From the NCBI GenBank assembly GCA_963785725.1, contig CAWAWS010000015.1, positions 320,001-384,000 of the forward strand: a stretch of 64,000 bases of DNA, given 5' to 3'. This DNA is from an uncultured delta proteobacterium. GTDB taxonomy: Bacteria; Myxococcota_A; Polyangia; Palsa-1104. Positions within the stretch are counted from its first letter, which is position 1, and every line of letters begins with the position of its first letter. Made by a program: the position numbers and the translations under genes. Below the pieces are notes generated by a model. It was given only the letters and a program-made list of their open reading frames with translations. It searched no databases and was not told the DNA's origin. Of the stretch, positions 3,685 to 63,242 are shown piece by piece.

Positions 3685-4797
3685 ATGCAAAACCGGCCGC
3701 CGAAGGCGGAGCCGAAGGTGCGCGGCACCCGCACGGGGTTCACGACCGGCGCCTGCGCGGCGGCGGCGGCCAAGGCGGCGACGCGGCTGCTCGTGCGCGG
3801 CGAGCCGATGACGGCCATCGAGACGACGCTGCCCAATCGTGACCGCGTGACGTTCGCGCTCCATCGCTGCGAGCAGGCGGTCGTCGCCGGCGTGGCGCGC
3901 GCGACCTGCAGCATCATCAAAGACGCCGGCGACGATCCCGACTGCACCCACGGCGCCGAGCTCGTCGCCACCGTCGAGTTGCGCGTCGAGCCCGGCATCG
4001 AGCTGCGCGGCGGCGCCGGCGTGGCGACGGTGACCAAGCCCGGCCTCGGCCTCGACGTCGGCGGCCCGGCGATCAACCCGGTGCCGCGCCGCAACATCAG
4101 CGACATGGTGCAAGAAGAGCTGGTCGAGCGCGGCGGCGGCGCGGTCGTGACGGTGAGCGTGCCGGGCGGCGAAGAGATGGCGCTCAAAACGCTGAACGCG
4201 CGGCTCGGGCTCATCGGCGGCATCTCGATCTTGGGGACGACCGGCATCGTCAAGCCCTACTCGACGGCGGCTTACAAAGCCTCGGTGGTGCAGGCGATCG
4301 ACGTGGCGCACAAGCGCGGCATCACGGAGCTGGTGCTGACGACCGGCGGCAAGTCGGAGGCCTACGCCATGCAGCTGTACCCGCGCTTCGTCGAGGAGGC
4401 GTTCATCCAAGTGGGCGACTTCATCGGCACCGGCGTCAAACACTGCGCGCGCCGCGGAGTCGAGCGCGCCATCGTCGTCGGCATGATGGGCAAGCTGTCG
4501 AAGATGGCCAACGGCAAGATGCAGACGCACGCCGCCGGCTCGGAAGTAAACATGGGGTTACTTGCGGAGCTGGCGGCGGAGCTGGGCGCGCGCGACGAGG
4601 TCGTGGCCGAGATCCGCGCGGCCAACACGGCGCGACACGTGCTCGAGCTGTGTCAGCGCGAGGGTTTGACGGGCGTGACGACGCGGGTGTGCAAGCGCGT
4701 CGCCGAAAACTGCGCGGCGCACGCCGGCGGCCGCCTCGACGTGCACGCGCGCCTCGTCGACTTCAACGGAACGTTATTGGGGAGCTGGCCAGAATGA
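3685..4797 (+). CDS. cbiD: Cobalt-precorrin-5B C1-methyltransferase
   Basis: RTGFTTGACAAAAAKAA, KDAGDDPDCTHG, AINPVPR, TLNARLGLIGGISILGTTGIV; start uncertain (ATG 3685, or ATG 3666 with an indel). Confidence 0.95.
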   Translation: MQNRPPKAEPKVRGTRTGFTTGACAAAAAKAATRLLVRGEPMTAIETTLPNRDRVTFALHRCEQAVVAGVARATCSIIKDAGDDPDCTHGAELVATVELRVEPGIELRGGAGVATVTKPGLGLDVGGPAINPVPRRNISDMVQEELVERGGGAVVTVSVPGGEEMALKTLNARLGLIGGISILGTTGIVKPYSTAAYKASVVQAIDVAHKRGITELVLTTGGKSEAYAMQLYPRFVEEAFIQVGDFIGTGVKHCARRGVERAIVVGMMGKLSKMANGKMQTHAAGSEVNMGLLAELAAELGARDEVVAEIRAANTARHVLELCQREGLTGVTTRVCKRVAENCAAHAGGRLDVHARLVDFNGTLLGSWPE

Positions 4798-4895
4798 GCG
4801 AGCGTAGGCGAGCGAGAGTGAGCGTCCGGCCGGTAGGGCCAGCGGAAGCGGATCGATGGATTCGCTCATGGGGCACCAACCCGGTGCGCCCATGA
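4794..4895 (+). CDS. Putative bridging mini-ORF (33 aa, MSERRRAR...)
   Basis: ATG overlaps the cbiD stop (ATGA) and its TGA overlaps the cbiC ATG (ATGA). Confidence 0.45.
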   Translation: MSERRRARVSVRPVGPAEADRWIRSWGTNPVRP

Positions 4896-5554
4896 GCAAT
4901 CAGACGAACGACATGCGGCAGCTGACCGGGCTCGGGCGCAGCATCGAGGACTCGAGCTTCGGCATCATCGACGCCGAGGCGGGCGCGCACGACTTCGACG
5001 CGCGGCAGTGGCAGGTCGTCCGCCGCGTCATCCACGCCACCGCCGACTTCGAGTTCAAGACGCTGATGCAGCTGACGCCCGACGCCATCGAATCCGGCAT
5101 CCGCGCGCTCACGAGCGGCTGCCCCATCGTCTGCGACGTCAAAATGATCATCGCCGGCTTGAACGAGGAGCGCCTGGCCTCGTACGGCTGCCGGACCTAC
5201 TGCTTCATCAGCGACGAGGACGTCATCGCCGAGGCCAAGGCGCGCAATTCGACGCGCGCCATCGAGGCCATGAAGAAGGCGCACGCGCTCGGCCTCCTCG
5301 ACGGCGCCGTCGTCGCCGTCGGCAACGCGCCCACCGCGCTCATCGAGACGGCGCGGCTGGTCAAGGAGCTGGGCGCCAAGCCGGCGCTCATCATCGGCGT
5401 GCCGGTCGGGTTCGTCTCAGCGGCGGAGTCGAAGGAGATCGCGATCGGGACGCCGGCGCCGTCGATCGTCGCGCGCGGCCGCAAAGGCGGCTCGACGATC
5501 GCCGTCGCCATCATTCACGCGCTCCTGCTCTTGTCGACGGAAGCCAAAGCGTGA
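4892..5554 (+). CDS. cbiC: Precorrin-8X methylmutase
   Basis: IEDSSFGII, VVRRVIHATADF, GNAPTAL, IIGVPVGFVSAAESK, GRKGGSTIAVA. Confidence 0.95.
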   Translation: MSNQTNDMRQLTGLGRSIEDSSFGIIDAEAGAHDFDARQWQVVRRVIHATADFEFKTLMQLTPDAIESGIRALTSGCPIVCDVKMIIAGLNEERLASYGCRTYCFISDEDVIAEAKARNSTRAIEAMKKAHALGLLDGAVVAVGNAPTALIETARLVKELGAKPALIIGVPVGFVSAAESKEIAIGTPAPSIVARGRKGGSTIAVAIIHALLLLSTEAKA

Positions 5555-9541: not shown

Positions 9542-9920
9542 TGGCGCGCGTCGGGCGTTACAAAGGCGCGATCGTCGTCGAGACGAGCGGCGCGCAGTGG
9601 CTGGTCGGCAATCCCAAAGAGCCGTGCGCGGAAGTGCCGGATACGCTGGAGGCGCCTTATGTTCGCGTGCTCGCGACGACGGTGCCGCTCGCGTGCCCGG
9701 CTTCGTCGTCGACGGTGAAGAGGGGGCCGCGCTGGCGCTGGCGCTCGCCGGCAAGCTCGTCATCGCGCGCAACGGCAGCGTCTCGGAGCGGCTGTGGCGG
9801 CTCGTGTACGCGGCGAAGCGACCACGGGCGAGCCGCGCTTGCGAGTGGCTGGCCGGCGAGATGCCGGCAGCCGATCTGGGAGATCGTCCGCGACACAAGT
9901 CCTCGTGCAGGAGCTCATGA
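9538..9920 (+). CDS. Hypothetical protein inside the cbi operon (apparent frameshifts)
   Basis: [25 protein letters not shown].. continuing in another frame as ..LVIARNGSVSERLWRLV..IWEIVRD; ATGA overlaps at both ends. Confidence 0.55.
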
Positions 9921-10696
9921 GGTGCTACATCATCGGCGCCGGCCCCGGCGATCCCGAAGCTCATCACCGTCAGCGGCGCAGAGCTCATCGCGCGCTGCCC
10001 GGTCGTCTTCTACACGGGCTCGCTCGTGCCCGAGGCGGTCATCGCGCGCGCTCGCAAAGACGCCAAGGTGCTCGACTGCTCGGGCATGACGCTCGACGAA
10101 ATCGTCGCCGTCATCGTCGCCGCGCGCGACGCCAGCCAGGACGTCGCGCGCGTGCACACCGGCGATCCGTCGGTCTTCGGCTCGACGGCGGAGCAGATGC
10201 GGCGCCTGCACGAGCTCGGCATCGAGTGCGAGATCGTGCCCGGCGTGTCGTCGTTCTCGGCGGCGGCGGCGGCCATCGGCAAAGAGCTGACCCTGCCCGA
10301 GCTGTGTCAGACGGTCATCCTGACGCGCGCCGAAGGGCGGACGCCGATGCCGCCCGACGAGAAGCTCGAGGATCTGGCGCGTCACCGGGCGACCCTCTGC
10401 CTGTTCCTGTCGCATCACGCTGATGAAGGACGTGTCGACGGCGCTGACCCCGTCGTACGGCGCCGATTGCCCGGTGGCGGTCGTGCACAAGGCGTGGTGG
10501 CCCGATCAGCAGATCGTGTGGGCGACCGTCGGTGACATGGCGGAGCAGGTGGAAGCGGCGGGGTTGAAGGCGACGTGCATGGTGCTGGTCGGGCGCGTGC
10601 TTGACGGCCGAGGACTTCGCCGACTCGCGCCTGTACGCGCCGGAGTTTTCGCATGGTTTTCGGCGGGCGCGGCCGCGCGCGGGTGTCACGCGATGA
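9917..10696 (+). CDS. cbiF: Precorrin-4 C11-methyltransferase (apparent frameshifts)
   Basis: IIGAGPGDP, YTGSLVP, VARVHTGDPSVFG, ELTLPELCQTVILTR, CPVAVVHKA, SRLYAPEFSHGFR. Confidence 0.92.
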
Positions 10697-12141
10697 CGAT
10701 GGGCTTCGTCCATCTCGTCGGCGCGGGCCCGGGCGATCCGGCGCTGTTGACGGTGCGCGCGCGCCAGCTCCTCGACGGCTGCGATGTCGTGGCTTACGAC
10801 GAGCTGTGCTCGGACGCGCTCTTGGCCGGCGTGCCGGCGACGGCCGAGCTGTTGCCGGTCGGTCGGCGCGCCAATGATGGGCAGAGCCGCGAAGGTTGTC
10901 TGCATCCGGCGGTGCTCGAGCGTGCGCGAGCGGGCAAGCGCGTCGTGCGGTTGAAGGCGGGCGATCCGCTGATCTTCGGGCGCGGCGGCGAAGAGGCCGA
11001 GGAGTTGGCGGCTGCGGGCGTGCCGTTCGACATCGTCCCCGGCGTGTCGGCGGCGCTGGGCGCGGCGGCCTATGCCGGCATTCCGCTGACCCATCGCCAT
11101 CTGTCGTCGTCGGTTGCGTTTGCGACGGGCCACGAAGGCGAAGGCGCGCCCGACGCCGGCACGCTCGTCTTGTACATGGCGGGCAAGAAGTTGGCGGCGA
11201 ACCTGGCGCGCGTCATCGCCGACGGGCGCGCGGCGACGACGCCGGCCGCGTACGTCGCGTCGGCGACGACGGCACGGCAGCGGGTCATCGTCGGCACGCT
11301 GGCCGATTTGCCGGCGCGCGTGGCCGCCGCCGACGTCGACGCGGCGGCGCCGGCGCTCGTCATCGTCGGCGACGTCGTGGCCTTGCGCGACAAAGTCGGC
11401 TGGCGCGAAAAGCGGCCGCTTGCGGGTCGGCGTGTGCTCGTCGGCCGCGCGCGCCCCGGCCGCTCGCAGCTGACGGCGCGTCTGACCGCGCTCGGCGCCG
11501 AAGTCGTGGAGGCGCCCGACGTCAGCGTCGCGCCGCCCGCCGACTGGACGCCGTTCACCCACGCGCTCGAGGCGCTCGATCTCGTCGATGCCATCGTCTT
11601 CGCCAGTGCCGAAGCGGTGACGGCGACGGTGGCGCAATTGGGCGCGCTCGGTCGCGACCTGCGCTCCTTGCCCTGGCTGCCGTTCGTCGCCGTCGGCCTA
11701 CCCACCGCCGAGGCGCTGCGCCGGCATGGCCTCGTGCCGGCCATCGTCGCGCCGGGCGCCTGCGCCGATGCGCTCGCCGGCCACGCGGCGCTGGCGTCCG
11801 GTCGGCTGCTCGTGCTCGCCGATGACAGCGGCCGCCCGCAGCTGGCCGCGGAGTTGCGCGCGCTCGGGGCGCGCGTCGACGTCGTCGCCGTCTATCGGCA
11901 CGCGCTGTCGTGGCCGCGCTTGCGCGATCTGCAGTTCGATCTCGTCATCGCGCCCTCGTCGTCGGCGGCGCAGCATCTGGCCGACGGTCCGTACGGCGCC
12001 GAATTGCGCGCGCAGCGCTGGCTGGCGATGGGCCCTTTGACCGAAGCCGCCGCGCAAAAGCTGGGCGTCCGCACCATCCAGCGCGCCGCCAGCGACGACG
12101 TCGCCAGCTTGGCCGCGCGCGCCGAGGAGCTTTTGGCATGA
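10693..12141 (+). CDS. cobA: Uroporphyrinogen-III C-methyltransferase / uroporphyrinogen-III synthase fusion (CobA-HemD)
   Basis: HLVGAGPGDPALLT, VVRLKAGDPLIFGRGGEEA, GIPLTHR; C-terminal PLAGRRVLVGRA..LGAEV HemD-like half. Confidence 0.9.
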   Translation: MTMGFVHLVGAGPGDPALLTVRARQLLDGCDVVAYDELCSDALLAGVPATAELLPVGRRANDGQSREGCLHPAVLERARAGKRVVRLKAGDPLIFGRGGEEAEELAAAGVPFDIVPGVSAALGAAAYAGIPLTHRHLSSSVAFATGHEGEGAPDAGTLVLYMAGKKLAANLARVIADGRAATTPAAYVASATTARQRVIVGTLADLPARVAAADVDAAAPALVIVGDVVALRDKVGWREKRPLAGRRVLVGRARPGRSQLTARLTALGAEVVEAPDVSVAPPADWTPFTHALEALDLVDAIVFASAEAVTATVAQLGALGRDLRSLPWLPFVAVGLPTAEALRRHGLVPAIVAPGACADALAGHAALASGRLLVLADDSGRPQLAAELRALGARVDVVAVYRHALSWPRLRDLQFDLVIAPSSSAAQHLADGPYGAELRAQRWLAMGPLTEAAAQKLGVRTIQRAASDDVASLAARAEELLA

Positions 12142-12194
12142 GCGAACGTCAGCGCGCGGAGCGACCGATTTGGTCACGGGGTATCGGCGGATGA
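12138..12194 (+). CDS. Putative bridging mini-ORF (18 aa, MSERQRAE...)
   Basis: ATGA overlaps with both the cobA-hemD stop and the cobO start. Confidence 0.45.
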   Translation: MSERQRAERPIWSRGIGG

Positions 12195-12721
12195 GCGACG
12201 GCAAACCGGACGGCATCGTCATCGTCTACACCGGCAACGGCAAGGGCAAGACCACGGCGGCGTTGGGCTTGGCCTGGCGCGCGATGGGCCGCCAGCTCCC
12301 CGTCGCCGTCGTGCAGTTCATCAAAGGCAAGTGGAAGACGGGCGAGCGCAGCTTCGCCGAGCAGCTGCCGCAGCTCACGTTCCGCGTGATGGGCCTCGGC
12401 TTCACCTGGGACTCCGACGATCTGTCGCGCGACGCCGCGGCCGCCAAAGCCGCGTGGGCCGAGGCGCGCACGCTCATCGCGGCCGGCGCGCACGACGTCG
12501 TCGTCCTCGACGAGCTGACCTACGCCGTCAATTACGGCTTCGTCGCGCTGGCCGAGCTCCTGGCGACGCTGGCGGAGCGACCGCGCCACGTCACCGTCGT
12601 CATCACCGGCCGCAACGCGCCCGACGAGCTCGTCGCCGCCGCAGACTTGGTCACCGAGATGAAATCGATCAAGCACCCCTTCAGCGCGGGCAAAAAGGCG
12701 TTGCCCGGCGTGGACTACTGA
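12191..12721 (+). CDS. cobO: Cob(I)yrinic acid a,c-diamide adenosyltransferase
   Basis: YTGNGKGKTTAALG, VQFIKG, VVLDELTYA, VITGRNAP, ADLVTEM..KHPF. Confidence 0.95.
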   Translation: MSDGKPDGIVIVYTGNGKGKTTAALGLAWRAMGRQLPVAVVQFIKGKWKTGERSFAEQLPQLTFRVMGLGFTWDSDDLSRDAAAAKAAWAEARTLIAAGAHDVVVLDELTYAVNYGFVALAELLATLAERPRHVTVVITGRNAPDELVAAADLVTEMKSIKHPFSAGKKALPGVDY

Positions 12722-15740: not shown

Positions 15741-16726
15741 GCGGCGCTTGCCGGCGCCGCGCCCCGAGCTGCGTGCGCTGCCGCCGGCCGTGCATGGCGG
15801 CGACGCGCCCGACGGCGTCGTCGACTGCTCGACCGGCGTGTCACCGCTGCCGCCGCCGCCGGCCGTGCTCGCCGCCATCGCCGCCGCCGATGTCACGCGC
15901 TATCCGCATCCGACGGCGCTGCCGCTGCGTCGCGCCATCGCCGCCGCGCACTCGGTCGACGTCGACTGCGTCGTCGCCGGCGCCGGCTCGGTCGAGCTCA
16001 TCTGGGCCTTGGCGCGCGCGTTCGGCGGCCCCGCGCGTCGCGTCGGCTATGTCGCGCCCGCGTTCGCCGAGTATGCGCAGGCGGCGCGCGCGTCCGGCGC
16101 CGAGGTGCTCGCCGTCGCCGACGCCGACGACGCGCGGCTCGCCGACGTCGACCTGGCCTTCGTCGCGCGGCCGGGCAATCCGACGCTGGCGCTGCCGACG
16201 CTGACGACGCTCACGGCGCCGCTTGACGATCGTGGACGAAGCCTATTTGCCGCTGTGCCAAGACGTGCAGCCGATGCAGCCGACGCCGCACGTCGCGGTC
16301 TTGCGCTCGCTCACGAAGCTGTTCGCGCTGCCGGGTTTGCGGCTCGGCTATCTCGTCGCCGACCGGCCGGTGGCCGCGGCGGTGCGCGCGGCGCTGCCGC
16401 CGTGGAATGTGTCGCAGCCGGCCATCGCCGCCGGCCTGGCCGCGCTCGCCGAGCCGACGGCGCCGGTGCGCGCGGCCATCGCAGCGCTGCGCGGCAGGCT
16501 GGTCGCGCGTCTGGCCGCGCTGCGCGCCGGCGTCGTCGCCGCCAACGGCACGTTCGTCGTCGTCGACGTCGGCGATGCGGCGGCGTTTTCGGCGGCGCTG
16601 CTCGCGCACGGCGCCCGCGTCCGCGACTGCACGAGCTTCGGCCTGCCGTCGCTGGTGCGCGTCGGCGTGCGCAACGACGACGATCAGGCGCGCCTCGTCG
16701 CCGCCTGGCGCCAGGTCATCGCATGA
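15733..16726 (+). CDS. cobD: Threonine-phosphate decarboxylase (PLP class I/II; apparent frameshift near 16225)
   Basis: HGG, RYP, GAGSVELI, PAFAEY, PGNPT, VDEAY, LRSLTKLFALPGLRLGY, VRDCTSFG. Confidence 0.85.
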
Positions 16727-18208
16727 CGAAGCCGGCACGCACCATCATGATCCAAGGGACCGCGTCGTCGGTGGGCAAGAGCCTGCGTGACGACGGCGCT
16801 GTGTCGTATTTGGGCGCGGCGTGGGCTGCGCGTGGCGCCGTTCAAGTCGCAGAACATGGCGCTCAACTCGGCGGTGACGCCCGACGGCGGCGAGATCGGC
16901 CGCGCGCAGTGGGCGCAAGCCGAGGCGGCGCGGCGCGCGTCCGCACGTCGACATGAACCCGATCCTGCTCAAGCCGGAGTCGACCTCGGCGTCGCAGGTG
17001 GTGGTGCTCGGTAAACCCATCGGCAGCATGCATTTCGGCGCCTATCACCGACAGAAGCCGGAGCTGCGCGGCGTCGTCGGCGCGGCGCTCGACCGGCTGC
17101 GCGCGGCCTACGAGCTCGTGGTCATCGAAGGCGCGGGCTCGCCGGCCGAGGTGAACCTGCAAAGATCGCGATCTCGTGAACATGTGGGTGGCGGAGCGCG
17201 CCGATGCGCCGGTCATCCTGGTGACCGACATCGAGCGCGGCGGGGCGCTGGCGGCGATCGTCGGCACCTTGGCCGCTGCTCGACGACCATGAGCGAGCGC
17301 GCGTGCGAGCGATCATCGTCAACAAGTTCCGCGGCGATCCGGCGCTGTTCGTCGACGGCGTGAAGTTCTTGGAGGCGCGCACGGGCGTGCCCGTCGCCGG
17401 CGTCATTCCGCACCTCGGCGACGCGCGCATCGCCAGCGAGGACTCGCTCGACCTTTTGCCGGCGCGCTCGGGACGAGGCGCGCGGACAATCGCCATCGTG
17501 AAGCTGCCGCGGCTGTCCAACTTCGACGAGTTCGAGCCGCTGCAGCGGATGTCGTCCTTACGCGTGCGCTTCGTCGAGCGGCCGGACGAGCTCGGCGACG
17601 CCGCGCTGGTGATCGTGCCCGGCACCAAATGCACCGTGGCCGATCTGGCGTGGCTGCGGCAAACGGGCCTGGCCGGCGCCATCGTCGCGCGCGCGGCCGC
17701 CGGCGGCGCCATCTTGGGCATTTGCGGCGGCTATCAGCTGCTGGGCGAGCGCATCCTCGATCCCGAAGGCGTCGAGTCGCGCGAGCCCGAAGTCGCCGGC
17801 CTCGGCCTGTTGCCCGTCGAGACCATCTTCCAGCGCGACAAAGTCACGCATCCGGTGCGCGTGCGGCTCGGCGACGGCGTCCCGCTGCTCGACGGCGCCG
17901 GCGGCCAGACGCTCGCCGGCTACGAGATCCACTGCGGCCGCGTCGCGATGACCCAAGACGCGGCCGGGCAGGGCGCGCGGCCGTTCGCGCGCGTCGTCCG
18001 CCGCGGCGACGACAGCGCCGACGAGCGCGAAGGCTGCATCCGCGGCGCCGTCGCCGGCACGCTCGTGCACGGCCTGTTCGAGAACGACCTCGTGCGCGCC
18101 GTCATCGACGGCGACGCCAGCTCGGCGAGCGATCCCTACGAGACGCTCGCCGATCACTTCGAGCGCGCCCTCGACATGCGTCACCTCGATGCGTTAGTGG
18201 GGCTATGA
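16723..18208 (+). CDS. cobQ: Cobyric acid synthase (several apparent frameshifts 16785-17280)
   Basis: [75 protein letters not shown]. Confidence 0.93.
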
Positions 18209-28063: not shown

Positions 28064-28990
28064 TCAGGTTTTGACGATGGCGATGCGCGGGCCGATGGCC
28101 AGGTCGAGCTCGCTCGCGCGGAAGAGGTCGCCGTCGAGCGTGTAGCTGAGCGGCTCGGCGAAGCGGACGTGGACGCGCGTCGCCAGCCGGTCGACGTGCG
28201 GCTCGCCGCCGAGTGGCCGGCCGGTGACGACGCGCGGCAGCTGCAGCGCCATCGACGTCGTCGAGATGCCCGAGGCGACGAGGTGGAAGTGGCGCGGCTT
28301 TTGTCCCGCTTGCCAGGCGACGCGCATGCCGATGCCGACGTCGGGCACGACCGAGGCCACGAGCAGCCGATAGCGCGCGTCGGGCAGTCGCTCGCCGTCG
28401 ACGATGAGCTCGGTGACTGTGGGCGCGAACAGCCAGCCGGCGAACGGGCCTTGCACCAGCGACGACGCGGCCGTGCGCACCGCCAGCAGCGCCGCCCACG
28501 CCGGTCCCGGCGTCATCGAGTTGCGGTAGTAGGCCTCGAGGAAGCGCGCGCCCATCAACGACGCGCACAAGAAGCCGTAGCGGCCACCGACGGCGAGTAG
28601 GTCCTGATCGAACGTGGCGACGTGGCCGCCGCGCTGGGCGACGACGAGGCGCGCGGCCAGCTCTTCGGGGCGCCCGCGAATGCCGAGGTTGCCGGCGATG
28701 GTGTTGACGGTGCCGCCGCGCAGGATGGCAAAGCGCGGCAAGTTGTCGGGCCCGTATGCGCGCACGAGCTCGGTCAGCGTCGCCAGGTTGGTGCCGTCGC
28801 CGCCGCAGGCCGCGACGAGGTCGACGCCGTCGCCGGCGAGGCGGCGCGCGCACTCGGTCAGCTCGGCCGGCGTGTGCGTGACGACGACCTCGCCCAGCTC
28901 GCCGACGACGGCGCGCAGCCGCTGCACGAGGCCGGGCGCGCGCCGCACGCCGCGCGCGTTGGCATTGACGATCACCGCCAGCTTCGTCAT
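28064..28990 (-). CDS. Diacylglycerol/lipid kinase family protein
   Basis: IVNANA, CGGDGT, LRGGTVNTIA, YTLDGD. Confidence 0.88.
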   Translation of the reverse strand: MTKLAVIVNANARGVRRAPGLVQRLRAVVGELGEVVVTHTPAELTECARRLAGDGVDLVAACGGDGTNLATLTELVRAYGPDNLPRFAILRGGTVNTIAGNLGIRGRPEELAARLVVAQRGGHVATFDQDLLAVGGRYGFLCASLMGARFLEAYYRNSMTPGPAWAALLAVRTAASSLVQGPFAGWLFAPTVTELIVDGERLPDARYRLLVASVVPDVGIGMRVAWQAGQKPRHFHLVASGISTTSMALQLPRVVTGRPLGGEPHVDRLATRVHVRFAEPLSYTLDGDLFRASELDLAIGPRIAIVKT

Positions 28991-28997
28991 GGGCGCG

Positions 28998-31331
28998 TCA
29001 CGGGTGGCTTAGGACGAAGTCGCAGCGCTCGACCCAATCGGCGGCGTCGAGGCGGGCGCCCGTTTCGGCGTTCGCGTCGGCGGCCAGCCGCGCAAAGCGC
29101 GACTTGGCGCCGGCGATGTCACCGGCGCGATAGTGCGAAACGGCCAGCACGCGCGCCTCTTCGCGATCGAAGCGCGCGTCCGGCAGCGGCTCTTTGGGCT
29201 GCCCGTTCGTGTCATACAGCGCCACGATGTCGGCGAAGCGGCCGCGATTGAAGAGCTGCTTGGCCAACAGATAACGATAGAGCGCGCGATCGGGATCGCC
29301 GTCGAGAAGGCCGCGCAAGCTCATGAGGTCGACGCTCGGGTCGCGCGTGCTCGCCGGCGCCACCAGCAGCTGCGTAAGCGCCGCGCGCGACGGACCGGCA
29401 GGCCAGCCGGCGACGAGGTGCTTGACCGTCAACAGGCGCGCCTGCGCTTCGTCGGCCGGCAGCTGCAACGCGCGCTGATAGCGGTCGCGCGCTTCGACGG
29501 CCTGGCCATCGAGCAGCGCCAGGTCGCCGAGCGCGGTCTCGGCGTGCGCGCGCAGGATGCCGTTGAGGTCGGGGCGCGCCAAGATGCGCGCGGCGTAGGC
29601 GCGCGCTTCTGGCCGCGCGTCGGCGGCGACGGTGGCGTCGAGCGCGTCGACGAGGCCGTCGACGTCGCGCGGATCGTCGGCGCACAGCTGATCGAAGAGC
29701 GCCAAGGCGCGCGCGCGGTCGCCTGCCTGCGCCGCCTGATGCGCCGCCTGCCGCGCCAGCGCCAACGCATGCGCGCAGGGCTTGCCGAACACGCTCGGAT
29801 GGCGCAGCCGGTCGAGCGCCAGCGCCACCTCCGACCGCGGCACCGGCTGCGCGTCGATCATCGCGAGCCACTGCGTGCGCAGCTCGCCGAAGCTGGCACC
29901 ATAGATGCGCCGGTAGCCGGCGTCGCTGCCGGCGTCGCGATAGAGCGCGGCCAGCTTGTCGGCGCCGCGCGTGTCGAGCAGAAAGCGGCAGAACGAGCCG
30001 GCGACGTTGTAGGCCTGACCGGCGTTGAGCCCGAAGAAGCGCGGCCCCATCGTCTGCGCCAGCGTGTTTTCGTCGATGACCTTGGCGTCGCGCAGCACTT
30101 TGACGACTTGATGCGGCGTCAGCGGCGAGCCTGCCCACGACGCGGCCACGGCCACGCCTTCGATGAGCCCGACGTTGACGTCGAGCCCGCGCCGCGAAAT
30201 GGCCAAGAGCGAGTCGCCGAAGCGGCCCGCGAACACGTGCGCCAGCTCGTGCATCAGCGTCGGCGCCGGCCAGCCTTCGTGCTGCAAGTAGACTTCGCGC
30301 CGCCACGGCTTGGCCACCATCGTGTGCGCCGCGCCCATGAGCGCCCGTTTTTGCCCGGCGTTGTCGAAGAGGAACGCGTGAATGGGCGCTTGCGGCGTCG
30401 CGCCGAAGAGTCGCGACAGCTGTTGCCAGCGCAGCTCGAAGTCGGCGGCATCGAGCGCGATCTGCTTGGCGTACGGCCCGTTCGGCGAGTAGTGCAGCAC
30501 GAAATGCTCGGTGTGCCGCTCGGCGCCGAGCGCGCGCGCGACGTCGTCGCCGTCGAGCTGAAAGCCGAGCTGCGCCCGGCGCGCGTGCAGCGCTGCCGCG
30601 GCGAGCCCGCAGCCGACGACGACGAGCGCGATGCGCAGGCGGCCTTGCCAGCGCAGTCGCGCCGCCAGCGTCTTGCCGTCGAGCAAGAGCGCCATCGTCG
30701 CCAGCGCGGTCGCGGCCAAGGTCGCGTGATAGAGCCGCGCCCAGCCGAAGGCGGCGGAAATGGCGAGCTCCTCGTCGTACAGAGAGCCGGCGAAGTAGCC
30801 GACGAACGGGTCATAGCCGAAGATGGGCGGCGCCGAATAGAAGCGCCAAACGCCCCACACGATCGACCCGAAGACGCCGGCGAGCGCCAGAAGCGACGGC
30901 GACAGCGCCCGCTGCCAGGGTCGTACGAGGGCGATCGTCGTGCCGAGCGCCGTGCCCATCGTCGCCGACAAGAGCGGCAACAGGGCGAACCAGGCGAGGC
31001 CGGCCGAGAAGTCGCAGTTGCGGACCCGCAGCGCGTTGGCCGTCACGAGGCCGAGCGGCACCAGCAACAGCAGCCACGACGCGGCCACGTTTCCCGCGTA
31101 AAGCCGTGCGACAGTAGCACCTGGGTGGGCGGCGGCGGCCGTGGCCGCGGACGGCGCGCGGCTCGATCGGGCGGCCACCGTGCGCGCCGCCGCCAGCTGC
31201 GCCGCGGCGAACGAGACGGCGACCGCCAGCACCAGCGACCATTCGTAGCCGAGGACATTGAACAGCGGCACAAAGCAGAGCGCGCCGGCTAAAACGGCCA
31301 GCAGCACGGCCCAGATTCGGAAGGCGTCCAC
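28998..31331 (-). CDS. Membrane protein with gluzincin-like (peptidase MA) domain and C-terminal TPR-like helices
   Basis: N-terminal TM helices, HTEHFVLHY, HELAHVF...GLIEGVAV, AYNVAGSF; Ala-rich helical C-terminus; start uncertain. Confidence 0.75.
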   Translation of the reverse strand: MDAFRIWAVLLAVLAGALCFVPLFNVLGYEWSLVLAVAVSFAAAQLAAARTVAARSSRAPSAATAAAAHPGATVARLYAGNVAASWLLLLVPLGLVTANALRVRNCDFSAGLAWFALLPLLSATMGTALGTTIALVRPWQRALSPSLLALAGVFGSIVWGVWRFYSAPPIFGYDPFVGYFAGSLYDEELAISAAFGWARLYHATLAATALATMALLLDGKTLAARLRWQGRLRIALVVVGCGLAAAALHARRAQLGFQLDGDDVARALGAERHTEHFVLHYSPNGPYAKQIALDAADFELRWQQLSRLFGATPQAPIHAFLFDNAGQKRALMGAAHTMVAKPWRREVYLQHEGWPAPTLMHELAHVFAGRFGDSLLAISRRGLDVNVGLIEGVAVAASWAGSPLTPHQVVKVLRDAKVIDENTLAQTMGPRFFGLNAGQAYNVAGSFCRFLLDTRGADKLAALYRDAGSDAGYRRIYGASFGELRTQWLAMIDAQPVPRSEVALALDRLRHPSVFGKPCAHALALARQAAHQAAQAGDRARALALFDQLCADDPRDVDGLVDALDATVAADARPEARAYAARILARPDLNGILRAHAETALGDLALLDGQAVEARDRYQRALQLPADEAQARLLTVKHLVAGWPAGPSRAALTQLLVAPASTRDPSVDLMSLRGLLDGDPDRALYRYLLAKQLFNRGRFADIVALYDTNGQPKEPLPDARFDREEARVLAVSHYRAGDIAGAKSRFARLAADANAETGARLDAADWVERCDFVLSHP

Positions 31332-37385: not shown

Positions 37386-37654
37386 TCGTCACCGTCGTCG
37401 CCGGCGGCGGCGAAGATCGCGAGCGGCGCCGGCTGCACGGGCGGGCGCGACGTGAAGGCCTCGACGCGCACGGAGCCGGCTTGGGCGCACAGGCGGGCGG
37501 CTTGCACCATGCACTCTTTGCCTTCGCAGGGGCCGGTGCCGAGGCCGGTGTAGCGCTTGATCTCCTCGACGCTGCCGTAGCCGAGGGCGATCGTGTGCTG
37601 GATGTCGGCGAGGGTCACGTCTTCGCAGCGGCAGACGATGGCTTTGGTGCTCAC
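37382..37654 (-). CDS. BFD-like (2Fe-2S) protein
   Basis: VCRCEDVT...IKRYTGLGTGPCEGKEC, TSRPP. Confidence 0.88.
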
Positions 37655-37667
37655 GAGCGCACCCGGG

Positions 37668-38981
37668 TCATTTCAAGCTCCCGGCGACGGCGTGGCCGCA
37701 GCGTTCGCCGCTCTGCCCCGCGCGCTCGCAGTTGACGAAGCCGGCCACGTCGCCGCACGCGAACAGCTCGGGCGTCGGCCCGCGACCGTCGCCGTCGACG
37801 CGACAGCTGAAGCCGCCGCCCGGCTCGTCGTACGCGACGGGCACGCCGTGTTGCCGCGGCAGCTCCGAGGCCGGCGCCGGCCGGGCCGCCACGGCCACGA
37901 GGTCACACTTGATCTTGCGCTTCGTCGTCTCGAGCGCGCGCACCCACGAATGGCCGTGCGCCGCGACCGGCTGCTCGTCGCGCCCATCGATGCGCGTGAC
38001 CTCGGCGCCGCCCGCGGCCAACGCGTCGGTCAGCGCCCGCGCGTAAGGCCCGTCGCCGATGACGACCGGTCGCGTCGCCGGCGCCACGCCGAAGCGCACG
38101 AGCAGCCGTCCGACGGCGCGCGCCGGCAAGACGCCCGGCCGGTCATTGTCGACGAAGATCGCATTCTGGTCGTAGGCGCCCGTCGCATACACGTAGCGCT
38201 TGGCCGTCAGCTTCACGAGACCCGCGGGCGCATGCAACGCCAACAATCCCGGCGCCGCGCCTTTGCTGGCCGCGTCTTCGGGATACCACGCGATCGCCGT
38301 CGTCGACGTCATGATGTCGACGCCGGCTGCTTGCGCCTCTTGCACCAGCGCATCGGCCGCGCGCGGACCGAACGCCGGATGCGCCAACAACGATCCGCCC
38401 GCACGATCCTGCTCATCGACGACCAGCGTCGCGTGACCGGCCTTGGCGCAGACGATCGCGCAGCGCAATCCCGCCGGACCGCCGCCGATGATGGCGACGT
38501 CGACGTGGCGCGTCCGCGGCTTCGGCAAGACCGGCGGCTTCGGCTGCGCGTCCGGCAGCTTGCCGAGCCCGCCCAGCTGTCGCACCACTTTGTTCAACAC
38601 CGCGTTCAGCGCCCGCGGCGACGTCATCATCGTGTGATGATCCATCCCCTTGGCGAAGAAGAAGTCGGCCGCGCCCAAGACGTCGAACCCGCCCGACGGG
38701 AAGGCGTTCTGCCGCTCGATGCGCAGGCCGTCCGTGACGGGCGTCTTGCAGGCGCGCACGTTGGGCTTGCCGTCGATGCGCATGAGGCAGGCGCCACAGT
38801 GGCCGGCGAGACAGAAAAAGCCGCGCGGCCGGTGATATTTGACCGAACGCGACAACACGCGCTGGCCCGACGCGAACAGCGCCACGGCCACCGACTCGCC
38901 GGCATGCGCCGTCACGTCGTCGCCTTCGAACTTCAGGGTCACCCGCTCACCGCGGGCGCGCTCGCTCAGTCGTCGGTCCAT
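37668..38981 (-). CDS. Sarcosine oxidase alpha / proline dehydrogenase alpha-like subunit (Fer2_4 + pyridine nucleotide-disulphide oxidoreductase)
   Basis: GESVAVAL, SRSVKYHRPRGFFCLAGHCGAC, VRAC, IIGGGPAG, FACGDVAG. Confidence 0.85.
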   Translation of the reverse strand: MDRRLSERARGERVTLKFEGDDVTAHAGESVAVALFASGQRVLSRSVKYHRPRGFFCLAGHCGACLMRIDGKPNVRACKTPVTDGLRIERQNAFPSGGFDVLGAADFFFAKGMDHHTMMTSPRALNAVLNKVVRQLGGLGKLPDAQPKPPVLPKPRTRHVDVAIIGGGPAGLRCAIVCAKAGHATLVVDEQDRAGGSLLAHPAFGPRAADALVQEAQAAGVDIMTSTTAIAWYPEDAASKGAAPGLLALHAPAGLVKLTAKRYVYATGAYDQNAIFVDNDRPGVLPARAVGRLLVRFGVAPATRPVVIGDGPYARALTDALAAGGAEVTRIDGRDEQPVAAHGHSWVRALETTKRKIKCDLVAVAARPAPASELPRQHGVPVAYDEPGGGFSCRVDGDGRGPTPELFACGDVAGFVNCERAGQSGERCGHAVAGSLK

Positions 38982-45706: not shown

Positions 45707-47860
45707 TTGGCGGCGATCTCTTCACCGGAGCTGCTCGAAGGCAACGTGCTGCGGGTCGTGTTCACGACGCCCGACGGCTCGTTCGCGGTCTTGCGCGTGC
45801 AGGTCGAAGGTCGCGACGAGCCGGTGAGCGTCGTCGGTCCGCTGGCCGATTCGACAGCCGGCGAGCACTTGAAGATGGAGGGCCACTGGGAACGACACGC
45901 GACGCACGGCGAGCAGTTCCGCGCCACCCGCGCCGTCGTCGAAATTCCGCGCACCTCCGACGGCGTCGCCCGTTATTTGGAGGGCATCAAGGGCATCGGT
46001 CCGATGTTGGCCGAGCGCCTCGTGGCGTCGTTCGGCGTCGAGGCGATCGAGGTCGTCGAGAAGGAGCCGTGGCGGGCGGCGCAGGTGCGCGGCGTCGGTA
46101 AACGGCGCGCCGATCGCGCGGCGCGCGACGCGGCCACGAAGCGGCAAGAGCGCGAGGTGATGGTGTTCTTGCAAGGCCTCGGCGTGTCGCTGGCGTACGC
46201 GGCCCGCATTCGCAAGGCTTACGGCGACAACGCGGTGGCGCGGGTGCAGGAGAATCCCTATCGACTGGCGCGCGATGTCGCGGGCATCGGCTTCGTCGTC
46301 GCCGATCGGATCGCGCAAGGGATGGGCGTTAGTCGCGACTCGCCGTTGCGGCTGCAAGCAGGCGTCTTGCACGTGCTCGATTCGCTCAGCGACGAAGGCC
46401 ATGTCTATTTCCCGGCAGCGGAGCTGACCGCGCGCGCGGCTGAAGCGCTGTCGATCGATGCCGCCCGCGCGACCGACGCGCTCGAGGGCCTGGCGCGCGA
46501 AGGGGCCGTCGTCATCGAAGGCGAAGCGGTGTTTCCGCCGCGGCTGCATCGCGCGGAGCTCGAGCTGGCGCGGCGCCTCGGCGAGCTGTTGAACGCCGAC
46601 CGCGAGCCGGCGCCGGCGCTCGTCGGCGGCGAGAAGCTGTCCGACGGGCAGCGGCGCGCGATCGGGCTGTGCGGCGAGGGCGGCGTCGCGGTCATCACCG
46701 GCGGTCCGGGCACCGGCAAGACGACGGTGGTGCGCGCGCTCGTGCAGAGCTGGGAGCAGGCGCGACGACGGGTGATGCTGGCGGCGCCGACGGGACGCGC
46801 GGCCAAGCGGCTGGCGGAAGCGACGGGGCGGCCGGCGCAGACGGTGCATCGGCTGCTCGAGTGGGGACGGCCGCAGCGCGACAGCGAAGGCGGCGTGCGT
46901 AAGGGCCCGTTCGGCCGCAGCGACGACAATCCGCTGGCGACCGATCTGCTCGTCGTCGATGAAGCGTCGATGCTCGATTTGTCGTTGGCGCGTGGCCTCG
47001 TGGCCGCGATCTCGCCGGGCACGACGCTGGTGCTGGTCGGCGACGTCGATCAGCTGCCGTCGGTCGGTCCGGGCCAGGTGCTGCGCGACGTGATCGAGTC
47101 GGGGCGCGTGCCGGTGGCGCGGCTGACCGAGGTGTTTCGTCAGGCGGAGGGCTCGGGAATCGTCGAGAACGCCTATCGAATTCTCGCGGGCGAGATGCCG
47201 ATCGGCTCGAAGGAGGCGACGGGCGACTTCTTCGTCATCACCGCCGACGAGCCCGAGCGGGCGCGCGACATGGTGGTCAAGCTGTGTCGCGAGCGGATTC
47301 CGTCGGCGTTCGGGCTCGATCCGCTGCGCGACGTGCAGGTGTTGGCGCCGATGCATCGTGGCGCGGCCGGGACCGAAGGGCTCAATCGCGCGCTGCAGGA
47401 GGCGCTGAATCCGGCGGGCGAAGCGGTGGCGCTGCCGGGACGCACGCTGCGCGTCGGTGACAAGGTCATGCAAGTGCGTAACGACTACGAGCGCGACGTG
47501 TTCAACGGCGACGTCGGCGTCATCGCGGCCGCGCGTCGCGACGATGAGGACGAAGCGGTGGTGGAGGTCGACTTCGACGGGCGGCGCGTGCGTTACGAAT
47601 CGGAGGCGCTGGGCGAGCTCGAGCTGGCGTATGCGGTGAGCGTGCACAAGAGCCAGGGCTCGGAATATCCAGCCGTGGTGGTGCCGTTGGTGATGCAGCA
47701 CTACATGTTGCTGCAGCGGAACCTCTTGTATACGGCGGTGACGCGCGGCAAGCGCCTCGTGGTGCTGGTCGGATCGGAGCGCGCGATTCGGCGGGCGGTG
47801 ACCGAAGCCGACGCATCGGCGCGTCATACCGGCTTGCGCGCGCGCTTGCAGGCTCTTTGA
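45707..47860 (+). CDS. recD2: ATP-dependent RecD-like DNA helicase
   Basis: [79 protein letters not shown] start assumed. Confidence 0.95.
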
Positions 47861-47867
47861 TAAGCTG

Positions 47868-49094
47868 ATGTGGATGAGGTGCGCGCTGTGGCTGACGTTG
47901 CTAATCGCCGGTTGTGGCAGCGGCGGCGAAACGTCTGACGCGGGCCAGTCGTCGGACATGAACATCGGCGACGTGGGCGCGGCCTTCGATGGGCCGGGGC
48001 CGCTGCGCGCGACGTTCACGGTGGTCGGCTGCGCCACGCTCGATACGTCGACGGGCGAGCCGCGCTGCAGCGGGCGGGCGCCGTTGGCGTTGACCTTCGT
48101 GCCGCTGGGCGCGGGGTTGAGCGCGTACGTGTGGACGTTCATGGGCGCGACGCCGGCCACGTCGAAGCAGATGTCGCCGTCGGTCACGTTCGCGACGCCG
48201 GGCACGTACACGGTGACGCTGGCGGCCGGCGGCGCGGCCGGCGCGACGACGGCGATGGGCACCGTCGTCGTCTCGGCGGGAACGACGGGCTCGCCGTGCC
48301 TGGCCGACACCGACTGCGACGCGGGCGCGGGGCTGTTTTGCGTCTGCACGCCGGGCCAGGCGGGCTGCGTCGGCGCGCTGGCGATCGGCTTCTGCTCGCG
48401 CGACTGCTCGGGCGCGCTCTGCGACGCCGGCCAAATCTGCGCCGACTTCACGCGCGGCGGAGCGTTCGTGCCCGCCAGCGTCGACGGTGGCGGCAGCGAC
48501 GTCGACGGCGGCACGGCGGCGTCGAGCGAGGTCTGGCGGCGCGCGCTGTGCGTCCCGAGCTGCACCGCCGACAGCGACTGCTCGAGCGGGCTGTCCTGCC
48601 GATCGTTGCCGGCGCTGGCGAGCGGCGCGGCTGCGGGCGGCAGCTTCAGCTGGCGGCAAGGCTGCTTCGCCGACGTCGACGGCGATGACGGCGACTCCTG
48701 CGTGTCGGTCACCGGCGCGCCCGACGACAGCCGCTGCTTGTCGGGGCGCTGCGATCCCTACGGCGCGCGCGGGCTCTGCACGTCGGAGTGCGCGACGAGC
48801 GCCGACTGCCCGACGACGGCGGCGTGCGCGACCTACGCCGACCCGATCGTGGCGGCCACGAAACAGGCGTGCCTGCGCCGCTGCGATACGACGTTCGCCT
48901 GCAGCGGCGATCCGCTGCTCGACTGCGAGCTGGCGCAGCAGCCGGGAGGGCTCGGCTTCACGACGACGCCGGCGGAAGCGGCGACGACGCGTTACTGCGC
49001 GCCGCTGCGCTGCATGACGACGACGCCCGCGCAGTGCGGACCGTCAGGCACGTGCACCGACGTCGGCAGCAGCTCGTTCTGCCTGCCCAACTAA
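47868..49094 (+). CDS. Cys-rich lipoprotein with PKD domain
   Basis: Lipobox IAGC; YVWTF...PSVTFATPGTYTVTL PKD motif; many C-x-x-D-x-D-C repeats. Confidence 0.85.
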   Translation: MWMRCALWLTLLIAGCGSGGETSDAGQSSDMNIGDVGAAFDGPGPLRATFTVVGCATLDTSTGEPRCSGRAPLALTFVPLGAGLSAYVWTFMGATPATSKQMSPSVTFATPGTYTVTLAAGGAAGATTAMGTVVVSAGTTGSPCLADTDCDAGAGLFCVCTPGQAGCVGALAIGFCSRDCSGALCDAGQICADFTRGGAFVPASVDGGGSDVDGGTAASSEVWRRALCVPSCTADSDCSSGLSCRSLPALASGAAAGGSFSWRQGCFADVDGDDGDSCVSVTGAPDDSRCLSGRCDPYGARGLCTSECATSADCPTTAACATYADPIVAATKQACLRRCDTTFACSGDPLLDCELAQQPGGLGFTTTPAEAATTRYCAPLRCMTTTPAQCGPSGTCTDVGSSSFCLPN

Positions 49095-52548: not shown

Positions 52549-52549
<1 letters not shown>

Positions 52550-53055
52550 TGAGGATCCTGGGCATCGACCCGGGTACGCGATACTTCGGTTACGGCGTCA
52601 TCGAGCGCCTCGGGCCTGGGCGCGTCCGGTACATCGAGTGCGGCGTGTTGCAGCCGCGGCGCGGCGACGAGCTGGCGGCACGGCTGGCCGACATCGCCGG
52701 CAGCCTGCGCGAGGTCATCGCCGAGCTGGCGCCGACGGTCGTGGCGGTCGAAGGCGTGTTTCACGGCGTCAACGCGCGGTCGGCGCTGCAGCTGGGCCAT
52801 TCGCGCGGCGTGGCGTTGGCGGCGGCGGGGGCGGCGGCGTTGACCGTGCACGAGTATGCGCCGGCGACGGTCAAGCGCGCGGTGGCCGGCAACGGCGCGG
52901 CGACGAAGGATCAGGTGTCGACGATGGTGCGGGCGCTGTGCGGCTTGGGGCGCAGCCCGTCGCTGGACGCGTCGGATGCGCTGGCGGTGGCGATCTGTCA
53001 CGCCTTTCGCGGCGCGGCGGTGGGCGCGCTCGCCGCGCGGGTGGCGCGGCGGTGA
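52549..53055 (+). CDS. ruvC: Crossover junction endodeoxyribonuclease
   Basis: ILGIDPG, VAVEGVF, LGHSRGV, VKRAVAGNG, DASDALAVAICH. Confidence 0.96.
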
Positions 53056-53256
53056 CCGCCCGGCGGCCGACGATGTCGCGCGGCGACGAGCCCGTCGCGA
53101 CTGTCTTGTGCGGCGACGCGCGCGCGGCGGCTATTTACGCGACGATGCGTGCGCGGCGATGGTTCTGCGCGGCGAGCAGCCGCGGCCGCGACAGTCGCAC
53201 GCACGGTGCGCCGATCGTCGTCGGCCGCGCATGAGCGCGCAACGAAAGATGCATTC

Positions 53257-53847
53257 ATGATCGCGCAGCTCCGCGGCACGCTCGTCGAAAAAGGCATCGA
53301 CCACGTGCTCGTCGACGTCGGCGGCGTCGGTTTCCGCGTCGCCGTCTCGCTCAACACGCTGGCGACGCTGCCGTCGGTCGGGCACACGGCGCAGCTGCAT
53401 ACGCAGCTCATCGTGCGCATGAACGCCGAGGACGTGCTCTTGCTCGTCGGGTTTGCCACGAGCGAGGAGCGCGCGGCGTTCGATCTCATCACGAGCGTGC
53501 AAGGCATCGGGCCCAAGCTGGCGATGTCGATTCTGTCGACGCTCGAGGCGTCCGAGCTGGCGCGGGCCGTGCGCGCCGGCGACCACGCGCGGCTGACGCG
53601 GATTCCCGGCATCGGCAAGAAGACCGCCGAGCGCCTCGTCCTCGAGCTGCGCGACAAGTTCACGGCCACGCCCGCGCCGGCGACGGGCAAGCGGCCGCTC
53701 GGCGCGCCCGCGGTCAGCTCGGCGCTGATCAACCTCGGCTACAAGCCGGCCGAGGCCGATCGCGCCGCCGAGCAGGCCGCCGCCGCGCATCCCGGCGCCG
53801 GCGTGGCCGAGCTGGTTAAAGCGGCGCTGCGCATCCTCGCGGAGTAG
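53257..53847 (+). CDS. ruvA: Holliday junction branch migration protein RuvA
   Basis: MIAQLRG, VGGVGF, VQGIGPKLA, IPGIGKKTAERLVLEL, ALINLGY. Confidence 0.96.
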   Translation: MIAQLRGTLVEKGIDHVLVDVGGVGFRVAVSLNTLATLPSVGHTAQLHTQLIVRMNAEDVLLLVGFATSEERAAFDLITSVQGIGPKLAMSILSTLEASELARAVRAGDHARLTRIPGIGKKTAERLVLELRDKFTATPAPATGKRPLGAPAVSSALINLGYKPAEADRAAEQAAAAHPGAGVAELVKAALRILAE

Positions 53848-61265: not shown

Positions 61266-61267
61266 TG

Positions 61268-62029
61268 CTAGCTGTTCCTATACTTCACGATCTTGAGAAA
61301 GTCATCCGCTTTCAGCGACGCGCCGCCCACCAGCGCGCCGTCGATGTCGGCCTGTCCCATGAGCTGCGCCGCGTTGTCCGGCTTGACGCTGCCGCCGTAC
61401 TGAATGCGCACGCGCTGCGCGACATCCGCGAACTGTTCCGAGAGCTTACCGCGAATGAACTGATGCATCTCTTGCGCTTGCTGCGGCGTCGCCGTGCGGC
61501 CCGTTCCGATGGCCCAAACCGGCTCGTAGGCGATGACGAGCCGCTCGGCATCCGCCGCCGTCAGCCCCGCCAAACCGCCTTCGAGATGGCGGCGCACGAC
61601 GTGAAAAGCCTCGCCCGCGTCGCGCTCGGCCAGCGTCTCGCCGACGCACAAGATCGGGTCGAGCCCGTTGCGCAGCGCCGCTTTGACCTTCAGGTTCGCG
61701 CTCGCGTCGAGCTCGCCGAAGTGCTGGCGGCGCTCGGAGTGGGCGATGATGACGTACTTACAGCCGACATCTTTCAATAGCTTGCAGGAGACCTCGCCCG
61801 TCCAGGCGCCTTGGTCTTCCCAAAAGCAGTTCTGCGCCGCCAGCGCCACCGACGAGCCTTCGAGCCGCTTGGCGACCGCGTGCAGCGCCGTGAACACCGG
61901 CGCCACGGCGACTTCGACATCGCGCACCGGTCCGACGGCGTTCTTGATCGCCGTCGCCAGCTCGAGCGACTCGGCGATCGTTTTGTGCAGCTTCCAGTTG
62001 CCGCAGATGAGCTTCGTCCGCTCGCTCAT
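61268..62029 (-). CDS. tpiA: Triosephosphate isomerase
   Basis: [46 protein letters not shown]. Confidence 0.98.
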
Positions 62030-62057
62030 GGTTGCACGCTCACGTCCGCGTGCTCGC

Positions 62058-63242
62058 TCACCCGGCGACCTCGAGCGCGGCGATGCCGGGCAGCGTCTTG
62101 CCTTCGATGAACTCGAGCGAGGCGCCGCCGCCGGTCGAGATGTGCTTGATGTCGCCGGCGAGGCCCATTTCGTTGACCGCCGCCACCGAGTCGCCGCCGC
62201 CGACGACCGTCAAGCCGCGGCAAGCCGCGACGGCTTTGGCGACCGCCAACGTTCCGGCGGCGAACGGCTTCTTCTCGAACACGCCCATCGGGCCGTTCCA
62301 GAAAACGGTGCGGGCGCGGGCGATGCGATCGGCGAACGCCGCCGCGGCGCGCGGTCCGATGTCGAGCGCCATCAACTCCGCCGGCACTGTCGTCGCTGCG
62401 CACGCTCGTGCCCGACGTCGCGTCGAGCCCCGCGGCCGCGATGACGTCTTCGGGCAACACGACATCGACGCTGCGATCTTCGGCGCGCTTCAAGAACGTG
62501 CGCGCGACGGCGAGCTTGTCCTCTTCGACGCGCGACTTGCCGACGTTGCCGCCTTTGGCCTTCAGGAACGTGTTGGCCATGGCGCCGCCGATGAGGAACG
62601 CGTTGACGCGGCCGAGGAGGTTCTCGAGCACGGCGATCTTGTCCGAGACCTTGGCGCCACCGAGGACGGCGATGTACGGCCGCTCGACTTCACCGAGCAG
62701 CTTGCCGAGAAACTGCACTTCCTTTTGCATGAGCAAGCCGGCGCCCTTTTCGGCGATGTACTTGATCATGCCGACCGTCGACGCGTGCGCGCGATGCGCC
62801 GTGCCGAACGCGTCGTTGACGTAGACGTCGGCGTAGGACGCCAGCTGGCGCGCGAAGCGCGTCGTCGTTGGCCTCTTCGCCCGGGAAAAAGCGCAGGTTC
62901 TCGAGCAGCGCCACGTCGCCGTCGCGCAGATCGTTGACCACTTTGCGCGCGCCGTCGCCGACCGCTTCGTCGGTGAGCAGCACCTCTTTGCCGAGCAGCT
63001 CGGCCAGGCGAACGCCTACCGGCTCTAGCGACAACGCCGGCGTCGGACCCTTGGGACGGCCGAGGTGCGACGCCAAGAATCACGCGCGCGCCGCGCTTGA
63101 CCGCCTCTTGAATCGTCGGCAGCGACGCCTTGATGCGCGAGTCGTCGGCGACGCCACGCGCGGGCGTCAGCGGCACGTTGAAGTCGACGCGAATGAAGAC
63201 CCGCCTGCCCTCGATGGGCAGGTCGGAGATGGACTTGATCAT
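62058..63242 (-). CDS. pgk: Phosphoglycerate kinase (apparent frameshifts near 63072, 62857, 62398)
   Basis: [67 protein letters not shown]. Confidence 0.95.

Follow-up and report, generated by a model that had tools for sequence, protein, structure and literature searches.

We suggest that the short open reading frames (ORFs) standing between co-directional genes in a 64,000-nucleotide stretch of DNA from an uncultured delta proteobacterium of the Polyangia (contig CAWAWS010000015.1 of GenBank assembly GCA_963785725.1, positions 320,001 to 384,000; hereafter the window) are insertions into RTGA overlaps, in which the TGA stop of one gene and the ATG or GTG start of the next share letters. 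The insertions would come from a hairpin repeat and from tandem duplications. They were likely kept by selection because a stop-free frame through the insert would keep the two genes translationally coupled, and we hold this reading with good, though not full, confidence.

The frame of the inserts carries this proposal. We define a relay as a stop-free ORF that opens on the upstream RTGA stop and whose own TGA overlaps the next start in RTGA. Genes of the source genome (G000; 8.9 Mb, 68% GC, 47 contigs, 88% complete), which contains the window, were called with a self-trained model (7600 genes, 81% coding); its start positions are rough and, given this, test and control stop classes were scored identically. 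Single relays bridge 98 of the 364 gapped RTGA junctions (27%; the 364 include junctions created by assembly frameshifts), against 30/364 in the other frame of the same junctions and 9-10% after stops that offer no ATG or GTG (CTGA 50/515, TTGA 11/126, TAA 65/642, TAG 59/613). Bridging is thus about three times as frequent as in the control frame and classes, without being universal. It also stands out with the repeat sites removed (82/344 vs 173/1767, p 1e-11). The next RTGA start lies at offset 2 rather than 1 mod 3 in 73 vs 20 cases after RTGA stops, compared with 36 vs 25 after CTGA and 13 vs 10 after TTGA. Fifty of the 98 relays have ten codons or fewer. Relays with 1-nt overlaps (TAATG, TGATG) stand outside these counts; such overlaps at one or both ends are seen at G000:C33:133691, G000:C35:76665, L213 and L187.

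Related genomes were scored over part of their length. Relays number 16/52 vs 36/252 in G004 (1.2 of 7.8 Mb; 90% coding by the same caller), where four of the 16 are repeat copies, 5/13 vs 4/45 in G003 (0.23 of 7.9 Mb) and 4/7 vs 5/44 in G010 (0.29 of 8.2 Mb; codon model). A retrained dicodon model, which was underpowered, had given 3/7 for G010 and 0/6 for G026, and both were rescored with the codon model.

In the window the seven mini-ORFs reported by the initial annotation were re-read with the same coordinates, RTGA ends and start-to-start offsets (98, 53, 11, 17, 32, 179 and 26); three of the seven start with GTG. They and their partners are as follows, the hairpins being predictions and the shuffle counts coming from the test of likeness to the repeat.

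3685..4797, plus strand: cbiD, upstream partner (NCBIfam)
4892..5554, plus strand: cbiC, precorrin-8X methylmutase type, downstream partner (NCBIfam hits below the family cut-offs)
4794..4895, plus strand: relay ORF cbiD>cbiC, 33 codons, a full-length copy of the ~90-bp repeat (E 1e-18; 0/200 shuffles)
4794..4817, plus strand: predicted hairpin at the 5' end of the repeat, containing tandem GA mismatches and beginning at the upstream stop and mini-ORF start (covariation)
4867..4894, plus strand: predicted 3' hairpin, pairing the cbiC start codon and the bases immediately upstream
10423..12141, plus strand: cobA-hemD fusion, upstream partner (NCBIfam)
12191..12721, plus strand: cobO adenosyltransferase, downstream partner (NCBIfam)
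12138..12194, plus strand: relay ORF cobA-hemD>cobO, 18 codons, likely an internally deleted repeat copy (0/200 shuffles)
28987..29001, minus strand: relay ORF peptidase>lipid kinase, 4 codons, likely a short junction duplication, not repeat-like (53/200 shuffles)
37651..37671, minus strand: relay ORF sarcosine-oxidase-type alpha subunit>BFD-like gene, 6 codons, weakly like the repeat ends (1/200 shuffles)
47857..47868, plus strand: TTG-started 3-codon ORF after recD2, ending in TGATG and equally explicable as a plain short gap
52549..53055, plus strand: ruvC, upstream partner (NCBIfam)
53257..53847, plus strand: ruvA, downstream partner (NCBIfam)
53052..53234, plus strand: first ORF of the ruvC>ruvA chain, 60 codons, the weakest case, not repeat-like (16/200 shuffles)
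53231..53260, plus strand: second ORF of the chain, 9 codons
61268..62029, minus strand: tpiA, downstream partner (NCBIfam)
62026..62061, minus strand: relay ORF pgk>tpiA, 11 codons, likely a repeat remnant comprising the 5' part and the 3' end (0/200 shuffles)

Ten window gene names match NCBIfam hits and pgk matches Pfam; the peptidase has a sub-threshold Pfam hit only. The case at 47857-47868, already described as a weaker one with TTGA and TGATG ends, is present. Sixteen RTGA-ending co-directional junctions of the window were scored: nine direct overlaps, five single relays, one chain (ruvC) and one apparent counter-example at 23779. The latter is a single FAD_binding_3 gene, of the FAD monooxygenase type, that a frameshift splits into two frames. 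Hence, the claims that every gapped RTGA junction is bridged and that counter-examples are lacking hold within the window. Genome-wide the former fails, as the 98 single relays at 364 junctions indicate, and the impression that most genes are joined by RTGA overlaps fails too, direct overlaps joining 776 of the 4296 co-directional pairs scored (18%).

All six window junctions occur as direct RTGA overlaps in relatives: cbiD>cbiC (as ATGA) and hemD>cobO in G003 and G012 (2/2 genomes each), peptidase>kinase in three of four relatives (G002, G003, G004), alpha>BFD in two of four (G001, G003), pgk>tpiA in 20 of 27 loci and ruvC>ruvA in 10 of 14 loci. The junction after recD2 is a direct ATGA overlap in G003. 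This supports the proposal of the initial annotation that the spacers are insertions into once-overlapping junctions; gene-deletion scars, its other suggestion, left no sign at the six junctions, where the same two genes overlap directly in relatives. For the cobO relay, one metagenome contig spans it gap-free and another is an empty allele, net 53 bases shorter; for cbiD>cbiC the public contigs listed end at the repeat. In all four cases of a relative with a retained RTGA stop and a spacer behind it, an unrelated relay fills the gap: different relays stand at alpha>BFD in G002 and at pgk>tpiA in G004 and G001, and a single 8-codon relay at ruvC>ruvA in G004. Different genomes thus bridge the same junction with unrelated spacers three times for pgk>tpiA and twice each for ruvC>ruvA and alpha>BFD. 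Among 293 orthologous pairs, 21 junctions combine a direct overlap in one genome with an RTGA stop and a gap in the other, and 16 of these are single relays (p 7e-5 against 1/3). The remaining five, read by eye, are three chains, one longer overlap and one apparent assembly insertion.

A peptide recurring among the 98 relays led to the interspersed repeat, whose full units measure 87-102 bp in the alignment. With 100 candidates scored per genome, matches number 47 in G000, 27 in G004, 18 in G002 and 10 in G001, with one or two strong matches each in G003, G005, G007 and G010. The 47 copies of G000 make up 40 sites, five of which are arrays of two or three units (C39:296078-296340, C2:250611-250855, C6:34018-34200, C24:64020-64175, C30:65992-66161) that resemble variable-number tandem repeats; in most arrays the frame chain still gets to the next gene. 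Copies lie in the sense direction with the RTGA start at their 3' end. At 39 of the 40 sites an unbroken frame chain leads into the next ORF: the script found 30 relays, five in-frame fusions and five breaks, four of which enter ORFs of 198-456 codons missed by the caller, leaving one true break. Twenty-nine sites open exactly on the upstream stop and two more do so via a 1-nt overlap. The 25 copies of G004 at E<1e-10 comprise 16 RTGA relays, three in-frame copies ending on TTGA or CTGA, one fusion, four copies with internal stops and, in every case, a restart codon no more than 10 nt away, and one orphan. Alignment A1 contains only units with lengths of 2 mod 3, an effect of the selection of its rows, and these lengths are excluded as evidence.

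Judged by its sequence, the cbiD>cbiC spacer is made by this repeat, and the cobO and tpiA spacers are probably its remnants. Of the other relays of 18-110 nt, 16/60 lean towards repeat likeness in the shuffle test. An internal GTGA about 24 nt into the repeat serves as a second stop/start node if the first part shifts frame, and the chain goes on from there (L238, G000:C37:63422, G000:C7:493178). At one junction G004 has a repeat bridge (L046, G004:C113) and G000 a 23-nt junction duplication (G000:C5:336220). An exact-pattern scan of 185,579 species genomes matched only five records, all Polyangia, Myxococcales or deltaproteobacterial metagenome-assembled genomes. Elsewhere in the phylum the repeat was found in 0 of 150 other genomes at E<=1e-4 (27 candidates scored per genome), plasmids and phages gave no match, and Rfam models over 4600-5100 gave nothing near the gathering score.

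The predicted layout of the unit is a 5' hairpin with tandem GA mismatches starting from the first RTGA, a short central hairpin and a 3' hairpin ending in the last RTGA. The ends of the unit do not pair together; each forms its own local hairpin. On four of five measures the first two helices score above every one of the 500 column shuffles, a result subject to the tool's caveat about relatedness. Of 29 informative copies, 27 keep a pair between the first purine and position 24, which the window copy at 4794..4817 breaks. The last purine, the first base of the final start codon, is paired with its hairpin partner in 21 of 24. The two terminal purines are independent of each other (equal in 18/33, p 0.73), flanking sequence identity is at background level, and there is no flanking duplication beyond TGA. 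A 4-nt target duplication is rejected on the strength of the independent purines and the background matching of the flanks, although old copies could have lost such a signal.

These observations invite a bolder reading, which we consider doubtful: the repeat may be an element that seeks out start codons, identifies its RTGA target through base pairing and, with a 3' hairpin that locks the host start to its own mini-ORF, makes its loss difficult; together with the duplications this would amount to a general 'mod-3 rule' for junction growth. Recognition by pairing is suggested since both terminal purines covary with internal partners and not with each other; this covariation fits target choice by pairing and later compensation alike.

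Thirty-three copies in relatives were traced, 24 of them with a counterpart in G000: ten counterparts are direct overlaps, one more is likely so, nine are non-overlapped starts, three are filled and one is a short relay. The copies before never-overlapped starts (9/24) indicate that the target is the start codon.

We propose that ribosomes finishing the upstream gene would reinitiate at the overlapping RTG, translate through the insert and reinitiate once more at the host gene, the mini-ORF peptides being by-products. At repeat copies the 3' hairpin would hide the host start codon, so that the host gene would rely on ribosomes coming through the insert, and melting of this hairpin may supplement or replace the second restart. 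According to a passage of PMC10666635, gaps of ~20 nt nearly abolish coupling, and this steep dependence on distance gives a selective reason for bridging spacers; below ~10 nt a relay is perhaps unneeded. Of the original inference of a ribosome relay on sacrificial peptides, the favoured relay frame and the sacrificial look of the peptides stand; what it had missed is the source of many of the spacers, namely repeat copies, their remnants and junction duplications.

A second way to couple the genes, which we regard as unlikely, is that the mini-ORFs are translated and needed, and act by melting a hairpin over the downstream start for free 30S subunits instead of by double restart. Sections of PMC12548453 treat the reinitiation and unfolding models both as open. 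Start regions behind repeat copies do fold strongly, averaging -24.3 kcal/mol (n=16) where direct overlaps average -14.2 kcal/mol (n=223), and the covarying base of the final start points the same way. However, the non-repeat relays (mean -13.6 kcal/mol, n=82) fold no more strongly than ordinary starts and yet share the frame bias, and unfolding alone would not require the stop to fall exactly on the start. Folding of the whole unit is unexceptional (z -2.65, -1.65 and -0.63; +1.88 for the cobO remnant).

Among the short relays are simple tandem duplications that span the overlap, including a perfect 14-mer. Sequence logic makes a duplication of length 2 mod 3 across RTGA open by construction, since it is made up of the downstream gene's head and the upstream gene's tail, both read in their own frames; a length of 0 mod 3 yields an N-terminal extension, and a length of 1 mod 3 breaks the link. 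Shared stretches of at least 7 nt fall into the offsets 2, 0 and 1 mod 3 as 11, 3 and 0 in G000 and as 7, 2 and 1 in G004. It is this all but empty 1 mod 3 class that speaks most clearly for purifying selection, albeit on small counts.

The same construction gives some room to a neutral origin, in which high GC makes NTG-A the commonest out-of-frame stop, and small frameshifts near gene ends or duplications yield relays unselected. The background relay rate of ~10% and the lone 60-codon ruvC ORF, which belongs to no NCBIfam family and could be chance, agree with it. Still, we find this origin very improbable. Under it, duplications of length 1 should be as common as those of length 2 and they are nearly missing (0 vs 11; 1 vs 7), and CTGA and TTGA stops, which share the codon logic, show no excess. 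Starts at offset 2 have A as their next letter in 92/156 cases after RTGA against 44/175 after CTGA, 68/208 after TAA and 47/172 after TAG.

Assembly errors deserve attention, since indels near true starts would remove the authentic N-terminus and leave what looks like a relay. Frameshift errors exist in the window at 62058-63240 (minus strand), where pgk is broken across reading frames, at 9690-10599, where single letters of the cobalamin operon are absent from public contigs, at 16726-17300 and at 23779, and the apparent insertion among the 21 opened junctions looks like another. Gene calls in G000 are to be handled with care for this reason. As a source of the relays such errors are barely credible: orthologous proteins begin at the downstream, not the upstream, start; the 12 indels listed of 84 against public contigs are all surplus letters in the assembly, which would feed the control frame; and the gap-free public contig across the cobO relay and the same excess in G004 and G003 argue likewise. 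In a 2.5-kb contig of G003 (L130, G003:C199), possibly a contaminant, there is a second ruvC-ruvA pair, with RuvA 46% identical to that of the window.

Functions of the short peptides themselves can be set aside as having next to no probability: although the repeat ORF opens with ten codons that resemble one another across copies, third codon positions diverge about as much as first positions (0.115 and 0.103); no Pfam match was found; unrelated peptides serve the same junction across genomes; and the two subfamilies of the repeat (A and B) differ by 2 nt in mid-unit, so their second halves are read in different frames into different C-terminal peptides, which means that the peptide is not what is kept. 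At one junction (L044, G004:C71; G000:C12:16178) the two genomes hold copies of different subfamilies, A and B, through repeated insertion or through conversion between copies.

Several observations weigh against the coupling proposal. About 70% of the gapped RTGA junctions are not single relays, and at a further 21 orthologous junctions a direct overlap in one genome corresponds to a non-RTGA stop plus a gap in the other, mostly a short one, with several of 19-76 nt (on rough start calls). The overlap can thus be lost together with its RTGA stop, and the stronger initial claim, that spacers are tolerated only when the coupling chain is kept, is not sustained. The TAA control class is also high in G004 (14/55), and G026, a genome of another family scored over 0.5 of 7.2 Mb with the codon model, has relays at 0/6. 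Related genomes are not independent samples, nor are intact repeat copies independent events, since their frame is partly inherited from a master copy. Among the 25 copies of G004 four carry an internal stop and one has no gene behind it. Finally, a passage of PMC7518266 reports that stable structure right after a stop lowers reinitiation, and the repeat opens with a hairpin. It is against these points that we still judge selection on the frame of the inserts to be the likely explanation.

Mycobacterial interspersed repetitive units (MIRUs), reportedly described by Supply et al. in 1997, lend themselves to comparison. In passages of PMC12548453 and PMC3184786 they are given as 40-100 bp long, with ~40-50 copies per genome and GC-rich internal hairpins; their ORF ends overlap the flanking genes, they insert at start codons with -4 spacing, and relatives have empty sites. 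The repeat described here is similar in its length of ~90 bp, its 47 copies, its GC-rich inverted repeats, its ORF overlapping both neighbours in sense orientation, its filled and empty orthologous sites (the window sites are empty in G003 and G012) and its short tandem arrays. It differs in that it occurs in another phylum, that its RTGA ends behave unlike a copied direct repeat and each pair internally, and that most G000 relays are not recognisable repeat copies. By analogy, the repeat appears to work like a MIRU; the likeness drawn here is one of lifestyle, and we do not class it as one.

Termination-reinitiation coupling, the subject of PMC10666635, PMC6728339 and PMC12548453, has the same -4 RTGA geometry, here used twice in succession; the partners in those texts are pairs of real genes, whereas the relay standing between two genes here is a throwaway ORF, with measurable selection on its length class. 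Delivery upstream ORFs and synthetic bicistronic designs, treated in part of PMC12548453, likewise use a short ORF for nothing but delivering a ribosome to the start that follows. That layout is shared by repeat copies before non-overlapped starts. Unlike delivery upstream ORFs, most relays here are intra-operonic and fed by the upstream stop.

Repetitive extragenic palindromic (REP) repeats are linked to Y1 (RAYT) transposases. Hairpin repeats of the REP type or of the miniature inverted-repeat transposable element (MITE) type are moved by IS110-type transposases too, as a passage of PMC3184786 states. Like them, the repeat is small, non-autonomous, hairpin-rich, lineage-restricted and variable in copy number. 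In contrast to them it is strictly oriented and sits on start codons, and no cognate Y1 or IS110 transposase was matched in G000, which is 88% complete; unlike a MITE, it has no terminal inverted repeats joining its ends and no target duplication beyond TGA. None of 47 loci checked in relatives (30 of the 84 Y1 matches and 17 IS110) is flanked by a clear repeat copy, the best model hit being 15.9 bits. Weak Y1-transposase matches number 11-27 per genome in G012, G001, G008 and G010, mostly in frames of ~190-280 codons, with none in G000 or G002. A literature search covering few subscription papers found no account of such a repeat in Polyangia or of frame-selected junction duplications.

The core idea is thus already in print for MIRUs. 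What the present comparison adds is comparative evidence from nature for functional coupling at many -4 overlaps, with selection acting on the frame of inserts. Many of the tiny ORFs at operon junctions are then not functional proteins. With hairpins over both of its ends, the repeat provides a test pair for telling reinitiation from unfolding. Which length class a junction insert belongs to may flag coupling-dependent junctions without experiments and, if the mod-3 rule is true, would reveal from genomes alone where coupling is really needed.

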